64,000 nt of DNA from an uncultured Polaromonas sp. (GTDB lineage: Bacteria; Pseudomonadota; Gammaproteobacteria; Burkholderiales; Burkholderiaceae_C), in contig CAYJMW010000008.1 in NCBI GenBank assembly GCA_964371235.1, positions 11,055 through 75,054 on the forward strand, in the 5' to 3' direction. How positions within the stretch are numbered: position 1 is the stretch's first letter; every line of letters begins with the position of its first letter. Below, piece by piece: positions 860 to 52,773 of this stretch. The notes under the pieces were generated by a model, which was not told the DNA's origin, made no database searches, and saw only the letters and a list, made by a program, of their open reading frames with translations. The translations under genes were made by a program, and so were the position numbers.

Positions 860-2776
860 TCAGCGCCCGCGCATGAACAGCGCATCCAGTTCTTTGATGC
901 TCACCTGCCGCCAAGTCGGCCGCCCGTGGTTGCACTGGTCCGAGCGCTCGGTGGCCTCCATCTGGCGCAGCAGGGCATTCATTTCGCCCTGCGTGAGCTG
1001 GCGGTTGGCGCGCACGGCGCCGTGGCAGGCCATGGTCGAGAGCAACTCGTTTTGTGCCCGCTGGATCACGGTGCTGGCATCAATCTGTGCCAACTCGGCC
1101 AGCACGCTGCGCGCCAGTTCCACGGCGTCGCCCTGCGCCAGGCTGGTCGGCACGGCGCGCACAGCGAGCGTTCTGGGCGAAAACGGGGTGATTTCCAGGC
1201 CCAGCGTGCCCAGCACTTCGGCGCTGGCCTCGGCGGTTGCCACTTCCTGCGGCGTCGCGGCAAAGGTGACCGGAATCAACAACGGCTGGCTGGCGATGCG
1301 GGAGGAGGTATCGAGCTGGTTTTTCAGCCGCTCATAAACGATGCGCTCATGGGCGGCATGCATATCGACGATAACCAGGCCCTGCGCATTTTCGGCCAGC
1401 ACGTAGATGCCCTGCAACTGGGCGATGGCGCGGCCCAGCGGCCACGGGTTCACTGCCTCTCCTGCCGGGACGGGGCAGGCCTGTCCGGAGCCTGTCGAAG
1501 CGGCCTGTCCTGAGCCTGTCGAAGGAGGTTGAGGGCTGCTCTCCAACCCACTCGGTCCACCGGTTACTGCCGCTCGCGCCGGCCCCCAAAGCGCTTCCAG
1601 GTCGGACGCGTAGTTGCCTCCATTCGCTCCCAAATTAATAGCTGGTTGCGCCCATTCCATATGGGCTAGAGCATGATTTTGCTTGAGAAATCCGCTCCCG
1701 GCGTGCGCAGGGGTGGCTTCGGGTGGCTGGCCTGCCAGCCCTGCCCGTGGCGCCGCCAGCGCATCTTCCGTGGCATGGTGCACCGCCTGGTGTACTTCGC
1801 GGCTGTCCCGAAAGCGCACCTCGATCTTGGTCGGGTGTACGTTAACGTCCACGCGGGCCGGGTCCATTTCGACATACAGCGCGTAGACCGGCTGGCGCTG
1901 GCCGTGCAGAACGTCTTCATAGGCGCTGCGTGCGGCGTGCGTGAGTACCTTGTCGCGCACGTAGCGGCCATTGACATAGGCAAACTGCTGGTCGGCGCGC
2001 GAGCGGGCAGCGTCCGGAATGCCGGCGCGGCCCCAGACCCGCACGGCGGGCCGGCCATCGGCCCGGCGCGCTGCGCTTTCATGGTTGACAGCCACCGATT
2101 GCGTCACAAAGTCGCTGCCCAGCACGTCAACCAGGCGCTGCTCGTGCGCCAACTCACCACTGCGGGCGCGCCATTGCTCGACCAGCCTGCCTTCGTGCCA
2201 GATCGCAAAACCGACATCGGGGCGCACCAGCGCATGGCGGCGCACGGCCTCAATGCAGTGCGCCAGCTCGGTGGCATCGGTTTTCAGGAATTTTCGGCGG
2301 GCCGGCGTGGCGTAAAACAGCTCGCGCACTTCCACGCTGGTGCCGCGGACGCGCGCGGCGGGTTTGATCTCGCCGGTGCGGCCATCGAGTTGCCAGGCAT
2401 GGTCGGCCTCCGGCGTTCTTGACAGCAGGCTGATGTCGGCAATGGAATTGATGGCCGCCAGCGCCTCCCCCCTGAAACCCATGGTGCCGACGGCCTCCAG
2501 CTCTTGCAGCGAGGCGATCTTGCTGGTGGCGTGGCGCTTGAGGGCAATCGCCAGCTCGCCCTGCGCAATGCCCATGCCGTCGTCTTCCACCCCGATCAGG
2601 CGCACGCCACCGGCCAGCAAGCGCACCGTGACTTGTGTGGCCCCGGCATCCAGCGCGTTGTCCAGCAGTTCGCGCACCACCGAGGCTGGCCGCTCGACCA
2701 CTTCGCCGGCAGCAATCTGGCTGATCAACTCGTCGGGAAGTTCGCGGATCGGGCGGCGCGGGGTCTGGGAGGTCAT
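860..2776 (-). CDS. mutL: DNA mismatch repair endonuclease MutL
   Basis: QIAAGEVVERPASVVRELLDN, GFRGEAL, DVNVHPTKIEVRF and C-terminal DMHAAHERIVYE / CNHGRPT endonuclease motifs. Confidence 0.98.
   Translation of the reverse strand: MTSQTPRRPIRELPDELISQIAAGEVVERPASVVRELLDNALDAGATQVTVRLLAGGVRLIGVEDDGMGIAQGELAIALKRHATSKIASLQELEAVGTMGFRGEALAAINSIADISLLSRTPEADHAWQLDGRTGEIKPAARVRGTSVEVRELFYATPARRKFLKTDATELAHCIEAVRRHALVRPDVGFAIWHEGRLVEQWRARSGELAHEQRLVDVLGSDFVTQSVAVNHESAARRADGRPAVRVWGRAGIPDAARSRADQQFAYVNGRYVRDKVLTHAARSAYEDVLHGQRQPVYALYVEMDPARVDVNVHPTKIEVRFRDSREVHQAVHHATEDALAAPRAGLAGQPPEATPAHAGSGFLKQNHALAHMEWAQPAINLGANGGNYASDLEALWGPARAAVTGGPSGLESSPQPPSTGSGQAASTGSGQACPVPAGEAVNPWPLGRAIAQLQGIYVLAENAQGLVIVDMHAAHERIVYERLKNQLDTSSRIASQPLLIPVTFAATPQEVATAEASAEVLGTLGLEITPFSPRTLAVRAVPTSLAQGDAVELARSVLAELAQIDASTVIQRAQNELLSTMACHGAVRANRQLTQGEMNALLRQMEATERSDQCNHGRPTWRQVSIKELDALFMRGR
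1478..1524. repeat. 24-bp-period tandem repeat inside mutL linker
   Basis: GGCCTGTCC[G/T]GAGCCTGTCGAAG at 1478-1500 and 1502-1524, one mismatch; encodes STGSGQA twice. Confidence 0.9.
1626..1680 (+). repeat. 55-bp dispersed element, copy A (in mutL)
   Basis: GCTCC-CAAATTA-ATAGC TGGTTGCGC CCATTCCAT ATGGGCTAG AGCATGATTTT. Confidence 0.8.
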
Positions 2777-15111: not shown

Positions 15112-15933
15112 TCAGGCGCTGGCACTGAGCAGCGCCAGTTCGGCCTCGTCAAACCCTGCAGCGCGGCGCGCGGCGAGGTTCAGCGGGCCTTTCAGGCGCG
15201 GCGCGCCGTACTGTTTGGCCAGCACCTCATAGGTGGCGAGTGGGTCCAGCCCGCGCTGGGCGCACAAATAGCGGTACCAGCGGTTGCCGGTGGCCACGTG
15301 GCCGATTTCATCGCACAAAATGGTATCCAGAATGTCCACGGCACGCAGCGCATCAGCTGTGCCGACCTTGCGCAGCCTGGCCTGCATCGGCGGCGTGGCA
15401 TCCAGTCCCCGGGCCTCCAGCGTGCGCGGCACCAGAGCCATGCGCGCCAGCACATCGCCTGCGGTTTTCCGGGTCATGTCCCACAGTCCGGTGTGGGCGG
15501 CGAAGTCGCCATAGTCGTAGCCCATGGTCTGCAGGTGGTCGCGCAGCAGGCTGAAGTGCCGCGCTTCTTCTGCGGCCACTTTCAGCCAATCCAGGTAGTA
15601 GGTGCGTGGCATGCCGCCAAAGCGCCAGACGGCGTCCAGCGCCAGATTGATGGCGTTGAACTCGATATGCGTTACGGCATGGATCAGCGCGGCCAGGCCT
15701 TCCGGGGTGAATGGGGAGCGTTTTGGAACATCCAGATGCGACCGCAACTTTGGCCGGGCAGGGCAGCCAGGCAGACCATCGGGGGCCTCAAAATCATCGT
15801 CAATTGCTATCAAAACAGTAGCAGATTGTGTCCACAGGACGTGGGCAAGATGCGCTTTTTGTTGTGGATTTTGCGCCATCAGCGCCTGCAGGGCAAGCTG
15901 GCGCAGTTCCGCGGGTGCAGGCGTGGCAGTCAT
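15112..15933 (-). CDS. ferritin-like domain protein (DUF455 type)
   Basis: HAVTHIEFNAINLALDA, AEEARHF, LVPRTLEARGLD and DEIGHV di-iron motifs. Confidence 0.88.
   Translation of the reverse strand: MTATPAPAELRQLALQALMAQNPQQKAHLAHVLWTQSATVLIAIDDDFEAPDGLPGCPARPKLRSHLDVPKRSPFTPEGLAALIHAVTHIEFNAINLALDAVWRFGGMPRTYYLDWLKVAAEEARHFSLLRDHLQTMGYDYGDFAAHTGLWDMTRKTAGDVLARMALVPRTLEARGLDATPPMQARLRKVGTADALRAVDILDTILCDEIGHVATGNRWYRYLCAQRGLDPLATYEVLAKQYGAPRLKGPLNLAARRAAGFDEAELALLSASA
15806..15860 (+). repeat. 55-bp dispersed element, copy B (in ferritin-like gene)
   Basis: GCTAT-CAAAACA-GTAGC AGATTGTGT CCACAGGAC GTGGGCAAG ATGCGCTTTTT. Confidence 0.8.
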
Positions 15934-20351: not shown

Positions 20352-22094
<1,743 letters not shown>

Positions 22095-22153: not shown

Positions 22154-23452
22154 ATGACAAATAAAGCAAATGAATCCGGTGACGACGCCTCCTCCGAATT
22201 GGCCGGCAAACACCTGGTGCTGGGCCTGTCAGGGGGCATTGCCTGCTACAAGTCGGCTGAGTTATGCCGCGCCCTGATCAAGGCAGGCGCCAGCGTGCAG
22301 GTCGTCATGACCGCGGCGTCCGAGCAGTTCATCACGGCGGTCACGATGCAGGCGCTCAGCGGCAGACCGGTGTACACCAGCCAGTGGGACAGCCGCGAAG
22401 CCAACAACATGGCACATATCAACCTGTCGCGTGAGGCCGACGCCATTGTGATTGCGCCCTGCAGCGCCGACTTTATCGCCAGGCTGCTTCATGGCCGGGC
22501 CGATGATCTGCTGAGCCTGATGTGCCTGGCCCGGCCGATCGACAAGGTGCCGCTACTGGTGGCGCCGGCAATGAACCGCGAGATGTATGCGCATCCGGCG
22601 ACGCAGCGCAACCTGGCGCAGCTTTGCGCCGATGGCGCCACAGTGCTGGGCGTGGGTACCGGCTTTCAGGCCTGCGGTGAAACGGGCGATGGGCGCATGC
22701 TGGAGCCTGAACAATTGCTTGACGATATCATCGCGTTCTTCGCGCCCAAGGTGCTGGCCGGGCAGCAGGTGCTGGTCACGGCCGGTCCCACCTACGAGGC
22801 CATGGATCCGGTGCGCGGCATCACCAATCTTTCAAGCGGGAAAATGGGCTTTGCGATCGCGCGTGCGGCGCGTGAAGCGGGCGCCGATGTCACGCTGGTT
22901 GCCGGCCCGGTCAGTTTGCCGACGCCACGCGGCGTCGGCCGGGTCGATGTGATGTCGGCACAAAACATGTTGGACGCCGTTATGCTACGGGGGCAAGCAG
23001 CTACCGTTTTTATAGCAACGGCGGCGGTGGCCGATTGGCGGCCGGCAGCGCCGTCGGAGCACAAGATCAAGAAAGACGGAACGGGTCAGGCACCCCAACT
23101 TCAATTCACCGAGACCCCGGATATCCTGGCCACGGTTGCCGCGCTCGCTGCCGCTCATTCGGGCAGGCCGTTTTGCGTGGGCTTTGCAGCCGAAAGTCAA
23201 AACCTGCATGAGAACGCCGTGGCCAAACGCCTGCGCAAAAACGTGCCCCTGCTGGTCGGCAATATCGGACCCGACACCTTTGGACAGGACCATAACGCCT
23301 TGCTGCTGGTGGATGCGCAGGGCTGTACCGAAGTGCCCAGGGCATCCAAGCTCGCGCTTGCGCGGCGACTGGTTCGGGAAATTTCCGCAAGGATGGGCGT
23401 GCAAGACCTCGCTCGCGGGCAAGTCAAATCAACAGGCCCAGTCAATTCATGA
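22154..23452 (+). CDS. coaBC: phosphopantothenoylcysteine decarboxylase/ligase
   Basis: [41 protein letters not shown] and GFAAES. Confidence 0.97.
22962..23016 (-). repeat. 55-bp dispersed element, copy C (in coaBC)
   Basis: Minus strand: GCTAT-AAAAACG-GTAGC TGCTTGCCC CCGTAGCAT AACGGCGTC CAACATGTTTT. Confidence 0.72.
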
Positions 23453-23895
23453 ACATTGACGTTAAGATTCTCGATCCGCGCCTGCAGGGCAACCTTCCCC
23501 ATTACGCCACGCCAGGCAGCGCCGGCCTGGACTTGCGCGCCTGCCTGGATGCGCCGCTCACGCTGGGGGCCAACGCCTGGCAGCTTGTGCCCACCGGCAT
23601 GGCGATTTACCTGCACGATCCCGGCTATGCCGCGCTCATTCTTCCGCGCTCCGGGCTGGGTCACAAGCATGGCATTGTGCTGGGCAACCTGGTGGGCCTG
23701 ATTGACAGCGACTACCAGGGACAGTTGATGGTCAGCGCATGGAATCGCAGCGACGTGCCTTTCACCATTGAACCCATGGAGCGCATTGCGCAACTGGTGA
23801 TCGTGCCGGTCGTGCAGGCGCGGTTTAATGTGGTCACCGGGTTTCCCGTCAGCCAACGCGGTGCAGGCGGGTATGGCTCAACCGGCAAGGGCTAG
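23449..23895 (+). CDS. dut: dUTPase
   Basis: [25 protein letters not shown] and [10 protein letters not shown]. Confidence 0.98.
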
Positions 23896-29392: not shown

Positions 29393-30022
29393 CTAAGGGA
29401 GTCGATATCGCGGCGGGTGGGCGTTCGCCACGCCACGTGATGCAGGCAAGCCCGCCCCCTTTCCGGCTTCACGAACAGCGGCAATGCGCTGGATGAAGCG
29501 TGGCAGCAGGCCTTGGGATTCCTCCTGAAAACCATCCTCGAAAGCCACCACCCGCAAGCCGCGGCACAACTCAAGCAACTCGCCTGTGCGCAACAAAAAA
29601 TCGGGGTGGGCGGGCTTGCCGACCGTCTCGTTGCCCTGGGTAAAGGTCTCGTAAATCAGCACGCCACCGGGTGCCAGGCTGCCCAGCAGCGTGGGCATCA
29701 GCGGGCGCCACAGGTAGTTGGTGACCACCACTGCGTCAAACTGGCGGCCCGCAAACGGCCAGGGGCCGGTTTCAATATCGGCTACCACAGCCTCGCAGGC
29801 ATGGGCCGGAAGTGCTATCGATTCAATAGCTGACTGCGACCTATCCACAAGGGCTAACCGGTGATTTCGTTCATAGAACCAGCGGGCGTGGCGACCGTGC
29901 CCACAGGCAACATCGAGCACCACGCCAGCGGCAGGCACCAGGTGCGACCAGCGCTTCACCCACGGAGAAGGCGGTGCCGTGTGGGCATCGATGGCATTGG
30001 AGGGATTGATGCTGACTACCAT
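29393..30022 (-). CDS. class I SAM-dependent methyltransferase
   Basis: VLDVACGHGRH, VVTNYLWRP, GGVLIYETF and FLLRTGELL. Confidence 0.88.
   Translation of the reverse strand: MVVSINPSNAIDAHTAPPSPWVKRWSHLVPAAGVVLDVACGHGRHARWFYERNHRLALVDRSQSAIESIALPAHACEAVVADIETGPWPFAGRQFDAVVVTNYLWRPLMPTLLGSLAPGGVLIYETFTQGNETVGKPAHPDFLLRTGELLELCRGLRVVAFEDGFQEESQGLLPRFIQRIAAVREAGKGAGLPASRGVANAHPPRYRLP
29814..29868 (+). repeat. 55-bp dispersed element, copy D (in methyltransferase)
   Basis: GCTAT-CGATTCA-ATAGC TGACTGCGA CCTATCCAC AAGGGCTAA CCGGTGATTTC. Confidence 0.85.
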
Positions 30023-30069
30023 ATTAATAGCTAACTATGCCCGTTCTGACTGGGCCACAGGCCAAAAAA
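30015..30069 (+). repeat. 55-bp dispersed element, copy E (overlaps methyltransferase start)
   Basis: ACTAC-CATATTA-ATAGC TAACTATGC CCGTTCTGA CTGGGCCAC AGGCCAAAAAA. Confidence 0.8.
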
Positions 30070-30091
30070 GCTTGTTAAAGATCCGGAAAAG

Positions 30092-38359: not shown

Positions 38360-40996
38360 ATGGACTTAGCGGCGACAGCCAGACTTCGAGCAGGCAGCGT
38401 GAGCCCCGGCTTTCTTTTCAGCGGTTTCATTGCCGGGGTGGCGCTGCAACTGCAGCAGGCCAGCCTGTGGCAGGGCGTGGGGTATGCCACGCTAGCGGCG
38501 CTGGGCGGTGCGCTGGTGGGGGTTCTATATGCTGCCGCGGCGAGAAGAAACTTTCGCGGCGCCGGATGGGCTGTTTTACTGAGCACAGCGCTGCTGGGTT
38601 TCGGCGTAACAGGTTGGCGGGCCAGCGCTTTTCAGTCCACCACATTGAACCCGGCGCTGGAAGGGCGCGACATTGTGGTGACTGGCGCCGTGCTGGCAAT
38701 GCCGCAGCCCGGTCAGGACGGGGTGCGTTTTCGCCTTGGCATCGAATCGGCCCGTCTCAACGGGCAGCCCGTGACCCTGCCGCCGCAGCTTCTGCTAGGC
38801 TGGTATGCGGGTTTTGGTGTGCGGGAGGCCAAAAGTTCGGCACTGGAAAGTGCTGATCCTTCCGAGTTGGAGCTGGCCTTGCAGCGCCAGCCGCAAACCC
38901 TGCGTGCCGGCGAGCGCTGGCGCATGACGGTGCGGCTCAAGGCGCCGCATGGCAACAGCAACCCTCATGGTTTTGACTACGAGCTCTGGCTGTGGGAGCA
39001 GGGCATTCAGGCCACCGGCTATGTGCGAGCCGGGCCGCACGATGCGCCACCTGTCAAACTCTCCAGCAGTTGGGCGCATCCGGTTGAGCGCGTCCGCCAG
39101 TCGGTGCGTGAAGCCATCTATGAGCGCGTCGAAAACCGGCCACTCGCCGGTGTGCTGGCCGCGCTGGTGGTGGGTGATCAAAACGCCATTGAGCGCGCCG
39201 ACTGGGATGTTTTCCGGGCGACGGGCGTGGCGCATCTGATGAGCATTTCTGGCCTGCACATCACCATGTTCGCGTGGCTTGCGTCCCTGCTGCTGAGCAG
39301 TCTGTGGCGGCGCTCCGCCCGGCTGACGCCGCGGCTTTGCCTGGCGCTGCCGGCCAGCAGCGCTGGTGCCTTGGGTGGGCTTGTCCTGGCTGCCCTGTAC
39401 GCGCTGTTCTCCGGCTGGGGCGTGCCGGCCCAGCGCACCATCTGGATGCTGGCGACGGTCGTGCTGCTGCGGCAAAGCGGCAAGCAGTGGCCCTGGCCGC
39501 AAATATGGCTGCTGGCCATGGCCGTGGTGGTGGCGCTGGATCCCTGGGCCCTGATGCAGGCCGGGTTCTGGCTGTCGTTTGTGGCGGTGGGTGTGCTCTT
39601 TGCCGCCGGGCCGTCCCAAGGCAAAGAAGCCCCCCCGGGGGGCAGCGACCCACACGCAGTGGATGAGCGTGGGGGCCATCTTGCTACAGATTCAGGAGCT
39701 GATCACGTAAGTGGTACAAGGGCTGGCGGCCAATTTGACTCACAAAATGGGGTTGATCCCTGGTATTGGCGACCCTGGCTGGCCAAACCCCTGGCCGGCC
39801 TGATGCGTGCCGCCCATGAGCAATGGGTGGTCACGCTGGCGCTTACCCCCTTGTCTCTGCTGCTGTTCAATCAGGTGTCGCTGGTTGGCTTGCTGGCCAA
39901 TGCGGTGGCGATTCCCTGGGTCACCCTGCTGGTCACGCCGCTGGCCATGCTGGGCGTGCTGTGGGCTCCGGTGTGGGACGTGGCGGCATGGGCGGTCGGC
40001 TTGCTGGCGGCGTTTTTGCAGTGGCTGGCCGCATGGCCGCTGGCTTCCCTCAGTGTGGCCGCGGCGCCGCTGTGGTGCGCTGTGGCAGGCGTGCTGGGCG
40101 GCGGCCTGCTGGCCTTGCGGCTGCCGTGGCACTGGCGCGTGCTGGGCCTTCCGCTGCTGCTGCCGGTGCTGCTGTGGCAGCCCGCGCGCCCGGCCCCCGG
40201 GCAGTTTGAACTGCTGGCCGCCGACATCGGGCAGGGCAATGCGGTCCTGGTGCGCACCGCCAGCCATGCGCTGCTGTACGACACCGGCCCGCGGTTTTCA
40301 CGCGAGAGTGATGCCGGCAACCGCGTGCTGGTGCCGCTGTTGCGCGCGCTGGGCGAGAAGGTGGACATGCTGGTGTTGAGCCACCGTGACGGCGACCATA
40401 CCGGCGGCGCGCCCGCCGTGCTGGCGATGCAGCCGCAGGCCAGCTTGCTCAGCTCGATTGAAGACGCGCACGAGTTGCAGGCGCTGCGCAAGGCCACCCG
40501 CTGCGTGGCGGGCCAGCGCTGGAATTGGGACGCGGTGACTTTTGAAGTGCTGCATCCGGCGCTGGCTGATTACGAGGTGGCCAACAAATCAAACGCCATG
40601 AGCTGCGTGCTGCGTGTTTCCAACGGCAACCAGACCGCGCTGCTGGTGGGAGATCTGGAGTCCGCGCAGGAACTCAGGCTGGCGTCAGGCACCGACTCTG
40701 CCCGCTTGCAGGCCAACTTCCTGCTGATGCCGCACCATGGCAGCAAAACCTCATCGAGCGGGCCGTTTCTGGATGCGGTGCAGCCGCAACTGGCGCTGGC
40801 GCAGGCGGGTTACCGCAACCGCTTTGGCCACCCGGTCGAATCGGTGCTGGCGCGCTACCGGGAGCGCGGCATCCGGCTGGTCAAGTCGCCACAGTGCGGG
40901 GCCGCGACCTGGCAAAGCCTCAAACCCGGCGACATCACCTGCCAGCGGCAAGAGGGCCAGCGCTACTGGCATCATGTGATCGGGATGGATAAATAG
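38360..40996 (+). CDS. comEC: DNA internalization competence protein ComEC/Rec2
   Basis: NPHGFDYE, HLMSISGLH, GFWLSFVAV, DIGQGNA, SHRDGDH and PHHGSKTSS. Confidence 0.95.
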   Translation: MDLAATARLRAGSVSPGFLFSGFIAGVALQLQQASLWQGVGYATLAALGGALVGVLYAAAARRNFRGAGWAVLLSTALLGFGVTGWRASAFQSTTLNPALEGRDIVVTGAVLAMPQPGQDGVRFRLGIESARLNGQPVTLPPQLLLGWYAGFGVREAKSSALESADPSELELALQRQPQTLRAGERWRMTVRLKAPHGNSNPHGFDYELWLWEQGIQATGYVRAGPHDAPPVKLSSSWAHPVERVRQSVREAIYERVENRPLAGVLAALVVGDQNAIERADWDVFRATGVAHLMSISGLHITMFAWLASLLLSSLWRRSARLTPRLCLALPASSAGALGGLVLAALYALFSGWGVPAQRTIWMLATVVLLRQSGKQWPWPQIWLLAMAVVVALDPWALMQAGFWLSFVAVGVLFAAGPSQGKEAPPGGSDPHAVDERGGHLATDSGADHVSGTRAGGQFDSQNGVDPWYWRPWLAKPLAGLMRAAHEQWVVTLALTPLSLLLFNQVSLVGLLANAVAIPWVTLLVTPLAMLGVLWAPVWDVAAWAVGLLAAFLQWLAAWPLASLSVAAAPLWCAVAGVLGGGLLALRLPWHWRVLGLPLLLPVLLWQPARPAPGQFELLAADIGQGNAVLVRTASHALLYDTGPRFSRESDAGNRVLVPLLRALGEKVDMLVLSHRDGDHTGGAPAVLAMQPQASLLSSIEDAHELQALRKATRCVAGQRWNWDAVTFEVLHPALADYEVANKSNAMSCVLRVSNGNQTALLVGDLESAQELRLASGTDSARLQANFLLMPHHGSKTSSSGPFLDAVQPQLALAQAGYRNRFGHPVESVLARYRERGIRLVKSPQCGAATWQSLKPGDITCQRQEGQRYWHHVIGMDK
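39605..39676 (+). repeat. GC-rich palindromic element inside comEC loop
   Basis: GCCGGGCCGTCCCAAGG...GCCCCCCCGGGGGGCAGCGACCCACACGCAGTGGATGAGCGTGGGGGC; C7/G6 hairpin and GCCCCC...GGGGGC inverted ends. Confidence 0.55.
39683..39737 (+). repeat. 55-bp dispersed element, copy G (in comEC)
   Basis: GCTAC-AGATTCA-GGAGC TGATCACGT AAGTGGTAC AAGGGCTGG CGGCCAATTTG. Confidence 0.75.
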
Positions 40997-41092: not shown

Positions 41093-42595
41093 ATGAGCCG
41101 CCCGATGTTTGATGAGATGAATGCCACGCCGTCCAGCGTCCGTGCGCACTACCAGAGCTATCAGCGCTGGCTGGCCCGGCAATCGGCCGAGGGGATGCAG
41201 GCGCGCCGGGCTGAGGCGGAAATGATTTTCCGCCGGGTCGGAATCACCTTTGCCGTGTACGGTGTCAAAGACGCAGTCGGGAGCGATGAAAATGGCGGTA
41301 CCGAGCGGCTGATTCCGTTTGACCTGATTCCCCGCATCATTCCGGCGCATGAATGGGCCAGCATGGAGCGTGGCCTGGTGCAGCGCGTCACCGCGCTCAA
41401 CCGCTTCATTCACGATGTTTATCACGGGCAGGAGATCATCAAGGCGGGTGTGATTCCGTCGGAGCAGATTTTCCAGAACGCGCAGTTCCGGCCCGAGATG
41501 ATGAATGTGGACGTGCCGGGCAACATTTACTCGCACATCAGCGGCATCGACATCGTTCGCGCGCCCAATGCGCAGGGCGAGGGCGAGTACTACGTGCTTG
41601 AAGACAACCTGCGCGTTCCCAGCGGAGTCAGCTACATGCTGGAAGACCGCAAGATGATGATGCGGCTGTTTCCCGAGCTCTTCAGCGAGAACCGCGTGGC
41701 CCCGGTGGCGCATTACCCGGACTTGCTGCTGGAAACCCTGCGCTCCATGGCGCCGCCCGCCACCGCCGATCCCACCGTTGTGGTGCTCACCCCCGGCATG
41801 TACAACTCGGCCTACTTTGAACACGCCTTCCTGGCGCAGCAAATGGGTGTGCAACTGGTCGAGGGGCAAGACCTGTTTGTCAAGGACAACTTTGTCTATA
41901 TGCGCACTACCCGCGGCCCCAGACGCGTCGATGTGATTTACCGCCGCGTGGACGATGACTATCTCGACCCGCTGGCTTTTCGGCCCACCTCCACCCTGGG
42001 CTGCGCGGGCCTGCTCAATGTTTATCGCAGCGGCAACGTCTCGCTGTGCAACGCCATCGGAACCGGCGTGGCCGATGACAAGTCGATTTATCCCTACGTG
42101 CCGAAAATGATCGAGTTCTACCTCGGCGAAAAACCCCTCCTCAACAACGTGCCAACCTACCTCTGCCGCAACAGTGAAGACCTGCGGTACACCCTGGCCC
42201 ACCTGAAGGACCTGGTGGTCAAGGAAGTGCATGGCGCGGGCGGCTACGGCATGCTGGTGGGGCCAGCGGCATCGCAGACTGAAATTGAAGACTTTCGCAA
42301 AGCGCTGCTGGCCAACCCGTCGGGTTACATTGCCCAGCCCACGCTCAGCCTCTCGACCTGCCCCACCTATGTTGAAAGCGGCATTGCACCGCGACACATT
42401 GACTTGCGGCCTTTTGTGCTGAGTGGCAAAGTGGTCCAGATGGTGCCCGGCGGCCTGACGCGAGTCGCGCTGAAAGAAGGCTCGCTGGTCGTCAATTCAT
42501 CGCAGGGCGGCGGCACCAAGGACACCTGGGTTTTGCAGGGCGACCCCGCCGTAAACATGCAGTCGTCGTTGTCAAAGGCTGGAGGAATCCCATGA
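41093..42595 (+). CDS. circularly permuted type 2 ATP-grasp protein
   Basis: RRVGITFAVY, VLEDNLRVPSGVSY, NSAYFEH, DVIYRRVDD, GTGVADDK and NSSQGGGTKDTW. Confidence 0.93.
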   Translation: MSRPMFDEMNATPSSVRAHYQSYQRWLARQSAEGMQARRAEAEMIFRRVGITFAVYGVKDAVGSDENGGTERLIPFDLIPRIIPAHEWASMERGLVQRVTALNRFIHDVYHGQEIIKAGVIPSEQIFQNAQFRPEMMNVDVPGNIYSHISGIDIVRAPNAQGEGEYYVLEDNLRVPSGVSYMLEDRKMMMRLFPELFSENRVAPVAHYPDLLLETLRSMAPPATADPTVVVLTPGMYNSAYFEHAFLAQQMGVQLVEGQDLFVKDNFVYMRTTRGPRRVDVIYRRVDDDYLDPLAFRPTSTLGCAGLLNVYRSGNVSLCNAIGTGVADDKSIYPYVPKMIEFYLGEKPLLNNVPTYLCRNSEDLRYTLAHLKDLVVKEVHGAGGYGMLVGPAASQTEIEDFRKALLANPSGYIAQPTLSLSTCPTYVESGIAPRHIDLRPFVLSGKVVQMVPGGLTRVALKEGSLVVNSSQGGGTKDTWVLQGDPAVNMQSSLSKAGGIP

Positions 42596-42756
42596 TGTTA
42601 TCTCGCACCGCCGATCATTTGTTCTGGATGTCGCGTTATATGGAGCGCGCCGGCGATATGCCGCAGGCATTCGCGGGGATGACTCATCAACTGCGCGAAG
42701 CGCTTGTGATGTCATCACCAAAATACGCAAAGCGCGTAAGCGCTTTCGGTGTTTGA
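42592..42756 (+). pseudogene. truncated duplicate of the alpha-E gene 5' end (54-aa ORF)
   Basis: 42595-42652 matches 42776-42833 at 55/58 nt; translates as MMLSRTADHLFWMSRYMERA followed by an unrelated tail; TGA at 42754-56. Confidence 0.8.
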
Positions 42757-42775: not shown

Positions 42776-43738
42776 ATGTTATCTCGCACCGCCGATCACC
42801 TTTTCTGGATGTCGCGTTATATGGAGCGCGCCGAAAACACCGCCCGCATGCTCGATGTGAACTACCAGACTTCACTGCTGCCGCAATCGGCTGCCGTGGC
42901 GCAACTCGGCTGGCAGGGGCTGCTCAGCATCAGTGAGCTCAAGCAGGACTACGCCGAAAAGCATGGCGACGGCGTCAAGCCGCGCGACGTGATGGACTTC
43001 ATGGTGCGCGATGAAAAAAACGCGTCCAGCATCATCTCGTGCCTGCGCAATGCCCGCGAAAACGCCCGCGCCGTGCGCGGCACGCTCACCACCGAGGTGT
43101 GGGAAACGCAAAACCAGACCTATCTGGAAGTCATGCGCATGTTGCGTCAAGGCGATTTCGAACGCGATCCGACCCAGTTTTTTGAATGGGTCAAATTCCG
43201 CTCGCACCTGTCGCGCGGCGTCACGGTGGGCACCATGCTGCAAGACGATGCGTTTCACTTTCTGCGGCTGGGCACTTTTCTGGAGCGTGCCGACAATACC
43301 GCCCGCCTGGTGGACGTGAAGTTTCATGCCGTGCCGGGCGACTATCTGGGCAGCGCCAGCGTGCAGGATCAGGAATACGATTTTTACCACTGGAGCGCCA
43401 TTTTGCGCAGCGTCTCGGGTTTCGAGGTGTACCGCAAGGTGTACCGCGACATCATCAAGCCCGAGCGCGTGGCCGAGTTGCTGATTTTGCGCGCCGACAT
43501 GCCGCGCTCGCTGCTGGCCTGTCTGAACGAGGTGATGCACAACCTCCTCAGCGTGACCAGCGACGCGCAAAGCGAAACCCAGCGCCGCGCCGGCAAATTG
43601 CGCACCGAGCTGCAGTACGCCCGAATCGACGAAATTCTGGCAACCGGCCTGCATGCCTATCTGACCCAGTTTCTTGATCGGGTCAACGAGCTGGGCGTGC
43701 ACATCAGCCGTGAGTTTCTGGTGCCGGCGACCCATTGA
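42776..43738 (+). CDS. alpha-E domain protein (DUF403)
   Basis: MLSRTADHLFWMSRYMERAEN, second ER motif GTFLERADN; RBS AGGAGG. Confidence 0.93.
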   Translation: MLSRTADHLFWMSRYMERAENTARMLDVNYQTSLLPQSAAVAQLGWQGLLSISELKQDYAEKHGDGVKPRDVMDFMVRDEKNASSIISCLRNARENARAVRGTLTTEVWETQNQTYLEVMRMLRQGDFERDPTQFFEWVKFRSHLSRGVTVGTMLQDDAFHFLRLGTFLERADNTARLVDVKFHAVPGDYLGSASVQDQEYDFYHWSAILRSVSGFEVYRKVYRDIIKPERVAELLILRADMPRSLLACLNEVMHNLLSVTSDAQSETQRRAGKLRTELQYARIDEILATGLHAYLTQFLDRVNELGVHISREFLVPATH

Positions 43739-43778
43739 GCGCAGCACCGTCAAACATCAGCCGCAGCGGGTGCCGCCC

Positions 43779-44600
43779 ATGAAGCTGCACATTCGGCACA
43801 CCACCGATTACCGCTACACCGAGCCGCTGCGTTACGCGTTGCAAACGCTCTGGCTCACGCCGCAGTCCGGCCCGGCGCAAACAGTGCATTTCTGGAGCCT
43901 GGGCGCGCCCGGAGAACTGTTTGCCCAGCGCGACGCCTTTGGCAACAGCGTTCATTCCTACAGCTTTGTCAGCCAGAGCGCTGACAACGTGCGCTGGAGC
44001 CTGGTCAATGCGGCCGGCCAGGTTGAGACCTTCGGCGTGGCCGAATTCACCGATGCTCAAGCATTGCCGCATCCGGATTTCTTTTTGCGCGCCACGCAAC
44101 TGGCCCGGCCGAGCCCGCTGCTGGCTGATTTTGGCCGCCGCTTTGTGCGCCTTTCAGGCCCGCCGGGGACGGCTGACTTGAGCATGCTTTTGGCCCTTAG
44201 CCAAGGTGTAGCGGGCGCAGTCAGCTATAAAAAGTATAGTACCGATGTCACCACCACGGCGCTCCAGGCGTTTGAAGCCGGTGCCGGTGTGTGCCAGGAT
44301 CAGGCGCATGTGATGGTTGCAGTCTGCCGCAGCCTGGGCCTGCCGGCGCGCTACGTGAGCGGCTATTTTTACGCCGCCAACGAGCCCGACCTGGCCAGCC
44401 ACGCCTGGGTCGATGTCTGCCTGGATGTGGCCGGCAGGCGCTGGGTCAGCATTGACGTGACCCACAGTTGCCTGATAGACGAGCGCCATGTGCGGCTGGC
44501 CATGGGCACCGACTACAACTCATGCCCGCCCATCAAGGGCGTGCGCCAGGGCGGTGGCGAGGAATCCATGACCGTCACGATCACGATTGAGCCGGTTTGA
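43779..44600 (+). CDS. transglutaminase-like protein
   Basis: HTTDYRY, GVCQDQAH (catalytic Cys), ARYVSGY, SHAWVDV and SIDVTH. Confidence 0.93.
   Translation: MKLHIRHTTDYRYTEPLRYALQTLWLTPQSGPAQTVHFWSLGAPGELFAQRDAFGNSVHSYSFVSQSADNVRWSLVNAAGQVETFGVAEFTDAQALPHPDFFLRATQLARPSPLLADFGRRFVRLSGPPGTADLSMLLALSQGVAGAVSYKKYSTDVTTTALQAFEAGAGVCQDQAHVMVAVCRSLGLPARYVSGYFYAANEPDLASHAWVDVCLDVAGRRWVSIDVTHSCLIDERHVRLAMGTDYNSCPPIKGVRQGGGEESMTVTITIEPV
44186..44240 (-). repeat. 55-bp dispersed element, copy H (in transglutaminase)
   Basis: Minus strand: ACTAT-ACTTTTT-ATAGC TGACTGCGC CCGCTACAC CTTGGCTAA GGGCCAAAAG. Confidence 0.75.
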
Positions 44601-48056: not shown

Positions 48057-49031
48057 ATGGCTAAAAAGTTTTTTTTCAGTGCGCTGACCACTTCCATAGT
48101 TCTTGCCGGTGCGCTTGCCAGCACGCCAGCCGTGGCCCAGCAGAAGTTCATCACCATCGGCACGGGTGGCATTACCGGGGTCTATTACGCGGTGGGCGGT
48201 GCGATCTGCCGGCTTGTCAACAAGGACCGCGCCAAGCACGGCATGCGTTGCTCGGTTGAATCAACCGGCGGGTCGGTCTATAACGTCAACACCGTCAAGG
48301 CCGGCGAGCTCGATTTCGGCATGGCGCAGTCCGATGTGCAGTATCAGGCCTACAACGGGACCGGGCCGCTAAAGGAAGCCAACAAGGACTTGCGCGCGGT
48401 GTTCTCGGTGCATCCGGAACCCTTCACGGTGCTGGCACGCAAGGAGGCCAACATCACTCAGTTCACCGACTTTAAAGGCAAACGCCTGAACGTCGGCAAT
48501 CCTGGTTCTGGAACGCGCTCTGCGATGGAGGAGTTGCTCGCGGCCGAGAACATGAAACTGTCCGACTTTGCGCTTGCTTCCGAGCTGAAGGCTGACGAGC
48601 ACGGTCCGGCGCTTTGCGACAACAAGATCGATGGTTTCTTCTATGGCGTTGGTCACCCGTCGGCCAACATTCAGGATCCAACGACGACTTGCGGCGCAAA
48701 ACTGGTTTCACTCACGGGCCCGGCCATTGATGGACTGGTGAAAAAGCATTCCTACTACGCCTACGCGACGATTCCTGGCGGGATGTATTCCGGTAACCCG
48801 CAACCGACCAAGACCTATGGTGTGCTGGCGACGATGGTGACCTCGTCGAAGGTACCGGCCGATGTGGTTTACACCATCACCAAGGCAGTGTTCGAGAACC
48901 TGGACGAATTCAAGAAGCTGCATCCGGCGTTCGCCAAACTCGAAGCCGCGAACATGGCCAAGGATGGCCTATCGGCGCCGCTGCATGAAGGCGCGGCAAG
49001 GTACTTCCGCGAAAAAGGCCTCATCAAGTGA
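48057..49031 (+). CDS. TAXI-family TRAP solute-binding protein
   Basis: Signal peptide; [27 protein letters not shown] and PLHEGA..YF. Confidence 0.93.
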
Positions 49032-51601
49032 CGCGTGCCGTTGACGCCGGGTTGCTGGTTCAGGAGGCCGACCTCGGCGGGCGCATGCCCTCCGGGGCGG
49101 TGCGGCGTCTGCTGTCGTCAACGTGCATCGCCTGGTCAGTGTTGCAGCTCTGGTACGCGTCGCCGCTGCCCTTCATCTTCAACGTCCTGGTGCTCAACAC
49201 CACCGAGATGCGCGCGCTGCATCTTGGTTTTGCGCTTTTTCTTGCATTTCTCGCGTTTCCGTTCGCCATGCGCTCGCCGCGCAATCGCATTCCGGTCCCC
49301 GACTGGGTGTTCGCCCTGGTGGCGGCGTTCTGCGGCGCGTATCTGTTTTTTTTCTACCGGGAAATCTCGACGCGGCCGGGCGAGCCGACGATGTTCGACA
49401 TCGTCACCGCGGTTGTCGGCATGGGTTTGCTGCTGGAAGCCACGCGCAGGGTCGTCGGACCCCCGCTGGCGATCATCTCGATCCTGATGCTTGTTTACGC
49501 GTTTGCGGGGCCGTACATGCCCGACGTGATCGCCCACAAGGGGGTCTCACTGAGCAAGGCGGTGTCGCACTTCTGGCTCACCACCGAAGGTGTGTTCGGC
49601 GTCGCGCTAGGCGTCTCGGCGAGCTATATTTTCCTGTTCGTGCTGTTCGGTTCGCTGCTCGAGAAGGCTGGCGCCGGCAATTACTTTATCAAGCTCGCCT
49701 TCTCGCTGCTCGGGCATATGCGCGGCGGACCGGCCAAGGCGGCCGTGGTCTCGTCGGGATTGATGGGAATGATATCGGGCTCGTCGGTTGCGAATGTTGT
49801 GACCTGCGGCACTTTCACGATCCCGCTGATGAAGCGTGTCGGCTATTCACCCGAGAAAGCCGGCGCGATCGAAGTTGCCGCCGGGGTTGATGGTCAGATC
49901 ATGCCGCCGGTGATGGGCGCGGCGGCCTTCCTGATGGCTGAATACGTTGGTGTTCCGTATGCGGAGATTGTCAAGAACGCATTTTTGCCGGCCATTATTT
50001 CGTACATCGCGCTCTTCTACATCGTGCACCTTGAGGCCTGCAAGGCCGGCATCAAGGGCATCCCGCGCAGCGGCAGCTTTTCGCCAATGCACCGGCTGCT
50101 CGGCATCGTGATGACGCTGGCTGGCGCCGTGGTGCTGGCCAATGTTGTCTATTACGGCATTGGCTGGATCAAGACCTTTGCCGGTGACGGATCGCTCTGG
50201 GTCATCCTGGCGCTGGTCGCGGCGGCCTACCTGCTGATTTTGCGGACGGTCGCGGCCGAGCCCGATCTGACCATCGACGACCCCAATGCGCCGGTGATCG
50301 AACTGCCGCCGCTCAAGGAAACGCTGCTTGCGGGCCTGCACTATCTGCTGCCGGTGGTGCTGCTGATCTGGACGCTGCTGGTCGAAAACCTTTCGCCAGG
50401 GCTCTCGGCGTTTTACGCCAGCCTGCTCCTGATCGCGATTTTGCTGACGCAAAAGCCACTGCTGGCGTGGTTTCGCAACGAACCGCTATCGCTTGCGGTG
50501 TACCGCGCTGGCTGGGACGACTTCATCGACGGCCTTGAGCGAGGCGCGCGCAACATGATCGGCATCGGACTGGCAACCGCGGCGGCCGGCATCGTCGTCG
50601 GCACCGTGTCGCTGACCGGCCTTGGCCTCGTGATGACTGATTTCGTCGAAGTGGTTTCAGCCGGCAACATCATGGGCATGCTGTTCCTGGTCGCGTTCAT
50701 CTGCCTCGTGCTCGGCATGGGCATGCCGACCACCGCGAGCTATATCGTCGTGTCAACCCTGATGGCGCCGGTCGTGGTCGAACTCGGCGCGCAGTCGGGG
50801 CTGGTTGTTCCTTTGGTGGCGGTTCACATGTTTGTGTTCTATTTCGGTCTCATGGCCGATGTAACGCCGCCGGTCGGGCTGGCATCATTTGCCGCCGCGG
50901 CAATCTCGCGCGCCGACCCGATCCGCACCGGCATCACGGCGTTCTGGTACAGCAGCCGCACCCTGATCCTGCCGTTCATGTTCATCTTCAACCCGCAGCT
51001 CCTGATGGTCGGCGTCAATTCAATCCCGCAACTGGTGATGATTGTCGCCGCGGCGATTGTCGCGATGTTGCTGTTCGCTGCCGCAACGCAGGGCTGGTTT
51101 GTCACGCGCAGTCGCTGGTACGAGTCTGTCGTGCTGCTGCTGGTCACCTTCACGTTGCTGCGCCCCGGTTTCTGGGTTGACCTGGCGCTGCAGAAATACG
51201 ACGTGCTCGCGCCTGCGCAGCTGACTGAACTGGCTGCCGCGGCACCGCCGGGCGGCAGCTTGCGGGTACGCATTGAAGGTACGACCGTCGAGGGCAAGGA
51301 TGTCCACAAAACCGTGCTGCTGCCGCTCGCCGATGTTGGCAGCGGCGCGCAGCGCATCGCCAAAGCCGGGATCAGCGTGATGGCGCTGCCGGCCGGACTG
51401 CAGGTCATGTCGGTTTCCCTGAAGAGTCCGGCGCAAAAAGCCGGCTTTGAGCAGGGCTTCGTGGTGACCGGTGTCGAAGTCGAGCGTGTCCGACCGGCCA
51501 AGGAGTGGCTGTACCCGCCTGCCTTGCTGCTGGCCGCGATCATCTTCGGCCTGCAGCGCATCAGGGTGCGGCGCGCGGCAACTGCCCCGGCAGCAGCCTG
51601 A
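49028..51601 (+). CDS. TAXI-TRAP fused permease with C-terminal extension
   Basis: [29 protein letters not shown] and [10 protein letters not shown]. Confidence 0.92.
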
Positions 51602-52262: not shown

Positions 52263-52289
52263 CGCGCAATGTTTTCTGAACCTGCAAGA

Positions 52290-52344
52290 AAAAACAGCCT
52301 GTAGCCCTCATGGAACGTACGCAGTATGCTATAAAAAAAGTAGC
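52290..52344 (-). repeat. 55-bp dispersed element, copy F (intergenic)
   Basis: Minus strand: GCTAC-TTTTTTT-ATAGC ATACTGCGT ACGTTCCAT GAGGGCTAC AGGCTGTTTTT. Confidence 0.85.
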
Positions 52345-52347
52345 AAA

Positions 52348-52773
52348 TCAGCGGCTTTTACCAGGCGTGACTGATGCGCTCCAGCGCTTGTCCCAGCCCT
52401 GCGTGATGTCATCGAGCTCGCGTCGCTCGCGTTTGGTTGGGCGGCCCTGACCCATGCTCAGCGCCGGCTCAGGCGTTAAACGGCGCTGCTCGGCGGCCTG
52501 TTGACGCGCCTGCAGGCTGTCGGCGGTTTCCTCGTAGAGCTGCTGCGCCACCGGCGCCGCCCCGCGCTGGCTGCTGATGCCGCGCACCACCACCATGCGC
52601 GTCACCGGGCCTTGCCGCAGGGCCACGCTGTCACCTGGCTTGACCTCGCGCGCGGGCTTTGCTTCCTGCCCGTTGATGTGAATGCGGCCTTTGTCAACTT
52701 CCAGGGCCGCGAGTGAACGGGTTTTGTAAAAGCGGGCGGCCCACAACCATTTGTCGATGCGTAATTTATCCAT
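52348..52773 (-). CDS. hslR: S4-domain ribosome-associated heat shock protein Hsp15
   Basis: RIDKWLWAARFYKTRSLA and GRPTKRERR. Confidence 0.93.
   Translation of the reverse strand: MDKLRIDKWLWAARFYKTRSLAALEVDKGRIHINGQEAKPAREVKPGDSVALRQGPVTRMVVVRGISSQRGAAPVAQQLYEETADSLQARQQAAEQRRLTPEPALSMGQGRPTKRERRELDDITQGWDKRWSASVTPGKSR

Follow-up and report, generated by a model that had tools for sequence, protein, structure and literature searches.

Dispersed repeats of bacteria are thought to reach genes by insertion, as with the Rickettsia palindromic elements (RPE) and ERIC, or by the build-up of point mutations in very short motifs, as with uptake sequences. Uptake sequences also form inverted pairs between genes and hold stable positions among related species. 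REPs, about 20-35 nt long, are extragenic by definition, and matS and parS are sites of 13-16 bp whose copies, from a handful up to a few dozen, are grouped in a single region of the chromosome. RPE and other intragenic MITEs such as ERIC are dispersed palindromes that are found between genes and in-frame in unrelated housekeeping genes (Ogata et al. 2000; Delihas 2007; PMC10969869). The uptake sequences of Pasteurellaceae (USS) and Neisseriaceae (DUS) occur in coding regions in preferred frames, where they encode recurrent peptides at poorly conserved residues (Findlay & Redfield 2009, PMC2817400). BRE is approximately 90 bp long, has 69% G+C, and often forms tandem arrays; it has been reported to peak in Polaromonas sp. 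JS666, with some copies wholly within coding sequences (Hot et al. 2011, PMC3110155).

Here, we describe a repeat family of Polaromonas, a 60-80 nt arm of which is embedded in the coding sequence for the folded core of CoaBC, an essential enzyme, with the length of the protein unchanged. Copies are also embedded, at little or no change of length, in mutL, waaC, tilS, truB, and other genes. The coaBC copy was analyzed in a 64-kb stretch of Polaromonas DNA, hereafter the window (Table 1). We consider it highly probable that the coaBC segment is an ancient, length-neutral, orthologous embedded copy of the family that is constrained at the DNA level.

Table 1. Genes and family copies in the window, with positions counted from its first nucleotide
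Feature	Position	Strand	Description
coaBC	22154..23452	+	bifunctional phosphopantothenoylcysteine decarboxylase / phosphopantothenate-cysteine ligase
dut (dUTPase)	23449..23895	+	PF00692 in syntenic locus; 4-nt overlap with coaBC stop, same operon context
Embedded repeat arm, full register inside coaBC	22958..23018	+	~60 nt
Core of coaBC copy, TACGGGGGCAAGCAGCTACCGTTTTTATAGCAA	22986..23018	+	independent profile match, E=1.1e-5
Terminal inverted repeat of coaBC copy, GCTAC-N7-ATAGC	23000..23016	.	GCT ACC GTT TTT ATA GC
Copy in mutL linker (gene 860..2776, -)	1632..1695	-	E=2e-9, independent profile; ..NHALAHMEWAQPAINLGA..; coaBC-like orientation and frame
Copy in SAM-dependent methyltransferase (gene 29393..30022, -)	29808..29878	-	coaBC frame, ..LALVDRSQSAIESIA..
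Copy in comEC (gene 38360..40996, +)	39679..39752	-	E=3.8e-5; orientation opposite to gene
Copy in transglutaminase-like gene (43674..44600, +)	44180..44242	+	E=4.3e-4; different frame, ..AGAVSYKKYST..
Weak eroded copy in DUF455 gene (15112..15933, -)	15805..15860	-	E=0.077; coaBC frame, ..WTQSATVLIAI..
Weak copy, methyltransferase gene 5' edge or just upstream	30015..30080	-	E=0.0056
Diverged intergenic copy	52288..52352	+	E=2.3e-9, seed profile (copy itself a seed); E=0.07, independent profile

The repeat family and its copy in coaBC

The repeat unit spans approximately 65-80 nt with the consensus ..AAAT..GCCTnTAGCCCAATnAATACGGGCGCAAGCAGCTAT-N7-ATAGCAA, and combines a core (ACGGGCGCAAGCAGCT) with a terminal inverted repeat. 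Compared with the genome, the family is AT-rich, and its copies are not arranged in tandem. Inverted pairs of arms, about 210 nt in length, were seen between genes only. There the element extends further inward with a stem of its own and pairs with a second arm. Covariation in the inverted repeat is almost absent, so any hairpin function is putative; pair 5 is in a C-A state in 11 of 74 intergenic copies.

The family was searched for with a profile of 8 seeds, none from coaBC, which include the diverged intergenic copy of the window, and with an independent profile of 19 intergenic copies from other genomes that contains no window or coaBC sequence. In a 128-kb search, the independent profile matches the core of the window's coaBC copy. 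Outside coaBC, 24 copies were found in 533 kb of loci, and the window holds 4-7; the density is roughly 1 per 10-20 kb. As a control, 116 viral contigs with the exact 15-mer core yielded no more than 4 extended matches, and the matches to the 15-mer in the viral scan were mostly due to chance. Intergenic copies occur in co-directional (20), convergent (13), and divergent (4) contexts, with no clear departure from background. Rfam gave no match at the gathering threshold for the window and none at E<0.1 for four composite-element loci, and blastn of the 221-nt composite against 72,556 plasmids (PLSDB) found no match. No target-site duplications or empty sites were established for intergenic composites in the comparison of three loci (L044, L003, and L019). 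The sequencing runs in which the window's sequence was found are all DNA metagenomes, with no RNA run among them.

The coaBC reading frame opens at a TTG (22109), and the downstream ATG listed in Table 1 is the start that agrees with orthologs. Its identity is supported by PF02441 and PF04127 in homologs (Pfam) and by a match to E. coli CoaB (1U7U) at E=5e-47. The segment of interest comprises the codons at 22962-23016, directly before TAAVADW; its DNA, GCTACGGGGGCAAGCAGCTACCGTTTTTATAGC, occurs once in the window, where GCTA-N9-TAGC was observed 4 times versus 0.21 expected. The core in the window, ACGGGGGCAAGCAGCT, has 1 mismatch to the family core, which many orthologs match exactly. It is followed directly by the inverted repeat GCTAC-CGTTTTT-ATAGC, which has a 7-nt AT-rich loop, fits the family rule GCTAY-N7-RTAGC, and is spelled with the rare codons GTT, TTT, and ATA. 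The left half of the window's copy (22958-22985) is largely eroded: the left part of the family, ..AAATnnGCCTnTAGCCCAAT.. at a fixed distance from the core, has a PWM score of -9.4 here (empirical p=0.009), compared to +17 to +19 (maximum +18.8) in the best orthologs, and it is clear at the same codons in many of them.

The segment coincides with the part of coaBC that encodes a helix and a strand of the CoaB core. Residues that are universally conserved (S/T-A, M, A-V, F/L-I/V, and AAVAD) fall within the element-like stretch. The initial annotation proposed that the element appears to overwrite coaBC sequence and was not simply inserted. Its view that this is no simple insertion was borne out, as the DNA resembling the element takes up a coding stretch of homologous length with no indel; the two routes that it offered, replacement or selection within codon constraints, fit the data equally well. 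The ~18-residue insertion that would have spoken for interruption is absent: the CoaB segment shows no gap in alignments with 80 orthologs or with solved CoaB structures (1U7U, 5INT, and 4QJI, from E. coli, Bacillus, and Mycobacterium). It is thus barely conceivable that a mobile repeat similar to RPE was inserted in-frame and added ~20 residues to CoaB, since both the gapless alignment and the conserved residues inside the stretch contradict this. A stop codon in the coaBC frame of canonical intergenic copies (CAA TAA/TGA ATA) also counts against insertion. On the other hand, the family consensus reads open in this frame, genic copies mostly use the one frame able to stay open, and copies in the MutL linker, a MetRS linker, and a ComEC loop occupy plausible sites for an insertion. 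There is also a small length excess over solved structures in TilS (+6) and TruB (+4), compared to about 0 in WaaC and the +22-26 that an insertion would give. Among features of in-frame MITEs of the RPE type, the same element frame does recur in unrelated genes, but CoaB has no added residues relative to element-free homologs and coaBC contains one arm only, not both.

A further suggestion, that the palindrome dictates the Thr found before xFI in place of a usual Asp, did not hold. Thr is present at this position in 67 of 80 orthologs, including palindrome-free ones, and the family consensus there is GCTAT, which would encode Ile; GCTAC, the form present in coaBC, is a minor variant found in 14 of 74 intergenic copies. 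Asp itself is not a firm rule, because the solved outgroups have N, D, and N.

Synonymous sites in the coaBC segment

The segment is the AT-richest and most synonymously constrained stretch of the gene. GC3 is 0.36 in the segment versus 0.75 in the remaining gene, and 0.33 versus 0.90 in one ortholog (L024). In a scan of 66 element-like sequences (65 orthologs and the window), a selection that biases entropy slightly downward, the segment had the gene's lowest GC3 (0.24-0.38) and lowest codon entropy (0.38-0.48 versus a gene mean of 0.64). At the relevant codons, GCT is used in 66, ATA in 58, and GTA in 9 of 80 orthologs, and elsewhere in coaBC ATA accounts for 0-2 of ~18 Ile codons. We compared third positions under conserved family columns with the expectation from codon usage in all 80 orthologs. 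They equal the family base in 67% of cases versus 27% expected, a strong shift toward the element consensus in the kind of comparison that the initial annotation had proposed. G/C-ending codons match the family as well (GCG 75% versus 37%; GCC 82% versus 46%), and therefore the shift exceeds mere AT-richness.

These results bear on whether the resemblance could be due to chance or dictated by codons, with the peptide forcing a series GCN-ACN-GTN-TTY-ATH-GCN that looks like the palindrome. Approximately 13 of 30 core positions are indeed fixed by conserved or ancestral residues, AQxAT-V-F-I-A-T being present in outgroups such as L066 and L075, and the window copy by itself reaches only E=1e-5. 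However, the matches lie at synonymous sites and use otherwise avoided codons, many orthologs match the family over ~60 nt (model positions 8-67) with E values down to 3e-9, and the same DNA is found in unrelated genes and between genes. Outgroups with similar peptides choose other codons. We regard the probability of a chance likeness as close to nil.

A gene-specific signal unrelated to the family, such as a conserved rare-codon cluster that slows the ribosome while CoaB folds, or a site within coaBC that regulates dut, would account for the composition and constraint of the segment and for its position at a helix-strand junction ~440 nt upstream of dut. Such a signal is nevertheless improbable, as the preferred bases track the family consensus position by position, including at G- and C-ending codons, mutL, waaC, and the methyltransferase gene maintain this sequence too, and lineages without the signal retain both the peptide and the operon. 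Reading by eye, we saw no promoter-like hexamer pair with proper spacing in the segment. A LexA box was considered and, also by eye, dropped, as the segment does not fit CTGT-N8-ACAG. A need confined to coaBC looks less likely than a cause common to all copies of the family.

Other genes, age, and origin of the copies

Family copies within genes are common. In a metagenome census, up to 54 of 170 copies lay within long open reading frames, and Pfam confirmed 17 of 20 tested genes. Confirmed carriers include WaaC, WaaA, UvrD, TilS, TruB, RsmB, MetRS, HemD, and YfiH, as well as an acyl-CoA synthetase, an FtsX permease, and DsbD. The frame encoding ..RAQAA[T/I]xxIA.. is shared by coaBC, mutL, the methyltransferase gene, WaaC, TilS, TruB, the FtsX permease, and others. 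The peptides encoded by the mutL and WaaC copies are each conserved in 120 orthologs; the DNA of the mutL copy still resembles the element in CJ2 and P. aquatica, and in CT11-55 and JS666 it has eroded. The methyltransferase copy shows no insertion relative to the Pfam profile, and its orthologous copies are stronger (E=1.6e-8 in L325 and E=9e-8 in L276). The DUF455 ortholog in L325 encodes RTQAASFLIAS and retains GCTA-N9-TAGCAA. The 857-residue open reading frame at 49028..51601 of the window was considered as an ortholog of the copy-bearing FtsX permease of CJ2 and was rejected (17% identity).

In an alternative with the direction reversed, a piece of coaBC or of some other gene gave rise to the dispersed repeat, and coaBC is the source and not a recipient. 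An open family consensus in the coaBC frame and a similarity that spans the codons of conserved CoaB residues are consistent with this origin. Yet at least a dozen unrelated genes carry the sequence, so most must be recipients in any case. The AT-rich codons of the segment are out of keeping with coaBC at large, the outgroup genes have GC-rich codons at this point, and the Polaromonas-specific residues (N and R-A-Q-A-A) are element-encoded at positions that vary in outgroups. In addition, the inward extension of the element, with its stem and second arm, goes beyond what coaBC contains. We consider coaBC an unlikely source.

The distribution among orthologs suggests that embedding in coaBC is old. 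Of 80 orthologs, 65 have GCTA-N9-TAGC at these codons, and in a neighbor-joining tree of coaBC the element-like state spans the whole Polaromonas clade, with the basal Variovorax (L079) and Caenimonas (L076) lacking it. Outgroup coaBC DNA was compared for Variovorax, Caenimonas, L066, and L080, as protein searches gave close Polaromonas relatives only. Shared DNA in outgroups would have argued against the proposal of the initial annotation; Variovorax, Caenimonas, and L080 differ from the element and, like a few nested lineages, have ordinary GC-rich codons at the segment, although Variovorax still has GCTA-N9-TAGC. Three lineages (L008, L012, and L030) encode the peptide RAQAA(N/S)VFIAT with GC-rich codons. 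Some nested lineages may have returned to GC-rich codons with the peptide RAQAA preserved, but this is uncertain on a single-gene neighbor-joining tree, as is the choice between loss and never having gained the element in nested low-scoring lineages. In CT11-55 both coaBC (L030) and mutL (L202) are eroded, and P. aquatica and the window have kept the two copies; erosion of copies may be correlated within a genome.

This distribution also contradicts an event in the window genome itself, a point on which the initial annotation needs correcting. Gene conversion from a nearby copy, with replacement of coaBC DNA of equal length, would explain a length-neutral resemblance, and in several relatives intergenic copies do lie within 1-2 kb of coaBC; the loop of one of them (L010, 4751-4811) is nearly the same as that in coaBC. 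However, the segment is orthologous in those 65 genes, is often closer to the family there than in the window, and is more eroded in the window than in most orthologs. The local family variant of the window, CAGTCAGCTAT, differs from that of coaBC, and the window's own variants (..GCGCAGTCAGCTAT..) do not recur in the copy within its coaBC gene, which argues against ongoing homogenization in this genome. A recent overwrite is thus very improbable, and ancient conversion remains part of the best explanation.

We infer, with moderate confidence, that ancient length-neutral embedding was followed by maintenance through a force acting on the whole family. According to this explanation, coaBC would have acquired the element sequence early in the Polaromonas clade, close to its base. 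The route would have been templated replacement of a short patch or a series of substitutions toward the motif, while purifying selection on CoaB would have kept M, A-V, and V/I-F-I-A. The DNA would since have been held near the family consensus by something that acts family-wide. The likeliest candidates are a trans-acting factor that recognizes the core and terminal inverted repeat, with each copy serving as a functional cis site, and a bias in transmission, for example through biased gene conversion or through uptake.

If a family-wide force maintains the copies, a DNA signal, and not protein function, determines some of the amino acids in many core proteins. The synonymous sites of their genes would then not be neutral, which matters for dN/dS and codon-usage analyses and for phylogenetics. 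If the copies arose by templated replacement, they represent a previously undescribed mode of repeat propagation. In practice, essential genes of the Polaromonas clade will be affected when repeat finders or annotation pipelines mask intergenic repeats, and conserved intragenic copies are potential substrates for ectopic recombination.

Comparison with described repeats and signals

Like RPE and ERIC, the Polaromonas family is both intergenic and genic, with an element frame that is open and compatible with protein function. The two differ in that RPE adds tens of residues, whereas CoaB gains none and WaaC, TilS, and TruB gain 0-6. In addition, the Polaromonas genic copies are one-armed, canonical copies have a stop in the frame that is used, and the orthologs sampled share their genic copies by orthology, with conservation at synonymous sites.

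REPs and REPINs resemble the family in copy density (one per several kb), in their intergenic inverted doublets, and in the lack of a plasmid match in PLSDB. About a quarter to a third of Polaromonas copies are intragenic, however, which is at odds with the extragenic definition of REPs. BRE shares the Polaromonas host and the presence of copies inside coding sequences; identity with BRE was rejected on composition, length, and tandem organization, the architecture differs as well, and it is the description of BRE that sets the family apart from it.

The initial annotation likened the element to matS and parS, with which it shares a palindromic core within coding DNA under codon constraints. 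This comparison fits poorly: the match covers ~60 nt, copies number on the order of a hundred or more per genome, with several dispersed in 64 kb and many genes affected, and inverted pairs of 210 nt occur between genes.

A more tentative possibility is that the family is a long cis-acting signal, and not, or not only, a selfish MITE, for example one for uptake or recombination or for recognition by a chromosome- or RNA-associated protein, and that it enters essential genes through substitutions or through templated replacement of short patches and not by insertion. If so, dozens of conserved Polaromonas housekeeping proteins would share the element-encoded peptide, kept by selection or drive at the DNA level, and the family would be either a 60-80 nt analogue of uptake-sequence evolution or an undescribed form of repeat propagation that overwrites coding DNA. 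To our knowledge, a motif of 60-80 nt far exceeds any gene-accumulating protein-binding or uptake signal, which weighs against the family-wide maintenance proposed above, and we know of no uptake specificity in Polaromonas. Similar to USS and DUS, the family accumulates in genes length-neutrally and in preferred frames, encodes a recurrent peptide, and sits at poorly conserved residues, with up to 32% of copies in open reading frames compared to 34-65% for USS and DUS. The uptake sequences have cores of 9-12 nt, or ~30 nt when flanks are included, and occur about once per kb, in contrast to the 60-80 nt of the Polaromonas family at roughly 1 per 10-20 kb.

The repeat arm embedded in coaBC

The window is Polaromonas-like, with a closest CoaBC ortholog 86% identical and a G+C content of about 0.61. 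In the part of coaBC that encodes the CoaB ligase domain, codons 22962-23016 specify 19 residues that are followed directly by TAAVADW. The underlying DNA (...GTTATGCTACGGGGGCAAGCAGCTACCGTTTTTATAGCAAC) includes the palindrome GCTA-N9-TAGC, which occurs four times in the window compared to 0.21 expected. This segment carries one arm of a dispersed Polaromonas repeat, embedded long ago at orthologous codons and with no change in length. It is gap-free in an alignment of 80/80 orthologs, and the window CoaB aligns without gaps over 34 residues with E. coli CoaB (1U7U), 5INT and Mycobacterium 4QJI. Simple insertion is excluded by this lack of gaps and by the presence, inside the element-like stretch, of the residues common to all CoaB, namely S/T-A, M, A-V, a hydrophobic strand and AAVAD. 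The initial annotation, which saw no extra residues here and proposed a search for indels among orthologs, is therefore borne out: no indel runs through the segment.

The coaBC stop codon is overlapped by dut in the window, by 4 nt. A syntenic Polaromonas locus (L325) has an additional 151-aa ORF between the two genes (11293-11748), without a Pfam match and absent from the window.

Repeat-family copies and other features of the window
Feature	Position	Strand or orientation	Remarks
coaBC	22109/22154..23452	+	Flanked by pyrG (minus strand) and dut
Element-like coaBC segment	22958-23018		21 codons
Copy in mutL linker	1632-1695 in mutL 860..2776	-	E=2e-9, strongest in window; encodes ..NHALAHMEWAQPAINLGA..
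Copy in comEC	39679-39752	Opposite to gene	E=4e-5
Copy in transglutaminase-like gene	44180-44242		E=4e-4
Copy in SAM methyltransferase gene	29808-29878
Copy in DUF455 gene	15805-15860		Weak
Copies other than coaBC, as first located	29812-29857, 44197-44242, 52297-52345, 15806		Repeat search and inspection by eye; all but 52297-52345 fall within copies listed above
58-nt direct repeat	42595-42652 / 42776-42833		95% identical

Membership of the segment in the family is supported by two profiles. The first, built from eight copies with coaBC excluded and searched against the window and 80 coaBC loci of other genomes, matched the segment in more than 50 orthologs, mostly over model positions 8-67 (about 60 nt; best E=3e-9); the window copy was matched in its core only (E=5.8e-4). 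The second, for which 19 intergenic copies from other genomes were the sole input, also matched window positions 22986-23018 (E=1.1e-5). As a control, 116 viral contigs having the exact 15-mer core by chance were searched, and just four gave an extended match. Because independent profiles match and the control contigs seldom do, the resemblance is neither a chance one nor confined to the palindrome. The four contigs with extended copies (L169, 11124-11182; L182, 5662-5715; L144, 2674-2711; L159, 433-463) may stem from Polaromonas-like bacteria, either as prophage or as host-derived regions.

Age of the segment and constraint on its DNA

The same coaBC codons carry GCTA-N9-TAGC in 65 of the 80 orthologs, Variovorax paradoxus included, and the palindrome is kept despite residue changes (ASIFVA, ATVLVA). 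In a neighbor-joining tree of coaBC alone, the whole Polaromonas clade is element-like, whereas Variovorax and Caenimonas are not. Low scores occur in a few nested groups of loci (L008/L012/L030, L038, L047/L073 and L065/L074/L075). The low-scoring Polaromonas genes retain the peptide RAQAA(N/S)VFIAT in GC-rich codons, and RAQAA is absent from outgroup CoaB sequences; judged by these sequences, such lineages look like cases in which an ancestral copy eroded while its peptide was retained. The earlier proposal that the copy overwrote coaBC DNA thus stands with regard to length neutrality, but not as an event of this genome, as the segment is old and widely shared. Nor does the palindrome dictate the Thr residue before xFI, as had been suggested: Thr is found in 67/80 orthologs, palindrome-free ones included, and the family consensus at this position is GCTAT (Ile) rather than GCTAC.

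DNA-level constraint in coaBC tracks the family consensus. Mean GC3 is 0.36 in the 21-codon segment compared to 0.75 in the remainder of the gene (0.33 versus 0.90 in locus L024 and 0.33 versus 0.92 in L042). Along the codon alignment, the segment has both the minimum GC3 (0.24-0.38) and the minimum codon entropy (0.38-0.48; coaBC mean, 0.64). At the Ala codon, 66/80 orthologs use GCT, and at the Ile/Val codon 58 use ATA and 9 use GTA, while ATA accounts for 0-2 of approximately 18 Ile codons in the rest of the same genes. When the expectation was taken from the codons used for each amino acid elsewhere in coaBC, third positions of the orthologs under conserved family columns had the family consensus base in 67% of cases versus 27% expected, and those under variable columns in 34% versus 20%. 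The excess is not a mere preference for A/T or rare codons, because it extends to codons ending in G and C. The local excess of substitutions toward the element consensus that the initial annotation had proposed looking for is clear.

Copies in other genes

A similar pattern is found in other housekeeping genes. In the window, the copies in the comEC, transglutaminase-like, methyltransferase and DUF455 genes show no evident insertion relative to Pfam profiles, and those in coaBC, mutL and the methyltransferase and DUF455 genes share an orientation and frame (..Q[A/S/P]A[T/I]xx[I/G]A..). In L325, which belongs to another species, coaBC (E=1e-9), methyltransferase (E=2e-8) and DUF455 (weak) copies lie at orthologous codons; the latter two are also conserved in locus L276. 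Conservation of the MutL peptide ..AFAQQGWAQPAINF.. extends to 120/120 Polaromonas MutL sequences retrieved; its QPAINF may resemble a clamp-binding-type motif. At the DNA level, the mutL copy is element-like in the window, P. naphthalenivorans CJ2 and P. aquatica (CAGCTATCAATTTTATAGCAAGC), and CT11-55, JS666 and GCA_900103405 have eroded versions with GC-rich codons. In CT11-55, the coaBC copy (L030) is eroded as well. The 58-nt direct repeat of the window is a duplication of the 5' end of an alpha-E (DUF403-like) gene, with the second copy 181 nt upstream; it creates a short ORF (MLSRTADHLFWMSRYMERAGDMPQ...) that immediately follows the ATP-grasp gene in an ATP-grasp/alpha-E/transglutaminase cluster.

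A metagenome scan with the 16-mer core as query yielded 120 loci and 170 profile matches, 54 of which fall within long, high-GC3 ORFs according to an ORF heuristic, supplemented by Pfam for a subset. Pfam confirmed 17 of 20 genic copies tested, with hosts including WaaC, WaaA, UvrD, HAD hydrolase (twice), FtsX permease, TilS, YfiH, MutL, HemD, TruB, acyl-CoA synthetase, RsmB, MetRS, methyltransferase and DsbD. The dominant frame is ..RAQAA[T/I]xxIA..; a stop codon interrupts it in canonical intergenic copies and is replaced in genic ones. A near-canonical full-length copy (L217, 8048-8126; 64 bits, E=4e-18) sits at the junction of the two domains of a WaaC heptosyltransferase; aligned with E. 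coli WaaC, the copy shows a length difference of no more than one residue. Its peptide, ..AQSIRAQAAPKNIAF.., is retained across 120 orthologs. Relative to solved structures, lengths at the element differ by +6 residues in TilS, about 0 in WaaC and +4 in TruB, compared to the +22 to +26 that insertion would have added.

In the CJ2 locus L197, a copy (21827-21905; E about 1e-8) straddles the boundary between ABC ATPase and FtsX permease genes, with the upstream stop and downstream start (GCT ATG A) within the terminal inverted repeat. FtsX-family permeases of 857-887 aa contain core copies (L197, 16466-16500; L229, 7008-7089) encoding GRAQAATDSIAN in CJ2 and IRVQAASDLIAN in a metagenome ortholog, in the same peptide frame as coaBC.

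Proposed maintenance of the family, and known systems

The family consensus, from 24 copies and later from 79 intergenic ones, is ..TTTT..AAATnnGCCTnTAGCCCAATnAATACGGGCGCAAGCAGCTAT-N7-ATAGCAA... Intergenic copies are often paired face to face with the inverted-repeat ends outward, forming a long hairpin of approximately 210 nt that resembles MITEs or REPINs. The terminal inverted repeat has a loop fixed at 7 nt, near-invariant outer pairs and little covariation, and might either form a hairpin or be recognized as duplex DNA. The family had no match in Rfam or in plasmids. Downstream of dut, several relatives show a hot spot for family elements; one genome (L003, 4197-5693) has about 1.5 kb of extra DNA there compared to L044 and L019, and this DNA contains a family copy and has direct repeats of about 175 nt on either side.

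We propose that the element sequence was imposed on coaBC near the base of Polaromonas, through either templated short-patch replacement or stepwise substitution, with selection on CoaB acting as a filter. It would since have been maintained, probably by a force acting on the whole family, such as a putative trans-acting factor that recognizes the core or a transmission bias. Two observations weigh against an active mechanism of this kind: coaBC in the window does not show the family variant typical of the window, and known intragenic signals are far shorter than the element. A need specific to coaBC could alternatively maintain the segment, but we favor this less than a family-wide force, given that synonymous sites agree with the family base by base, that maintenance is likewise seen in unrelated genes, that there are hints of erosion going together within a genome (CT11-55), and that intergenic copies occur solely in loci with an element-like coaBC (14/65 versus 0/15, roughly p=0.04).

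Uptake sequences form inverted pairs between genes, and their positions are stable among related species. In coding regions they are length-neutral, frame-biased and 9-12 nt long (PMC2817400). The Polaromonas family is similar in length neutrality, frame bias and the share of copies in ORFs, but uptake sequences are shorter and about ten times denser. RPE and ERIC insertions are in-frame and sit in many genes (PMC10969869); open-frame presence in many genes is common to the Polaromonas family, whereas only RPE and ERIC add residues. The family is also distinct from BRE, which is GC-rich and tandem (Hot et al. 2011). Because the family lacks defining features of RPE-type insertions, USS/DUS, REP, BRE and matS/parS, the last of which had been offered as an analogy in the initial annotation, we file it as a kind of coding-embedded repeat outside these classes.
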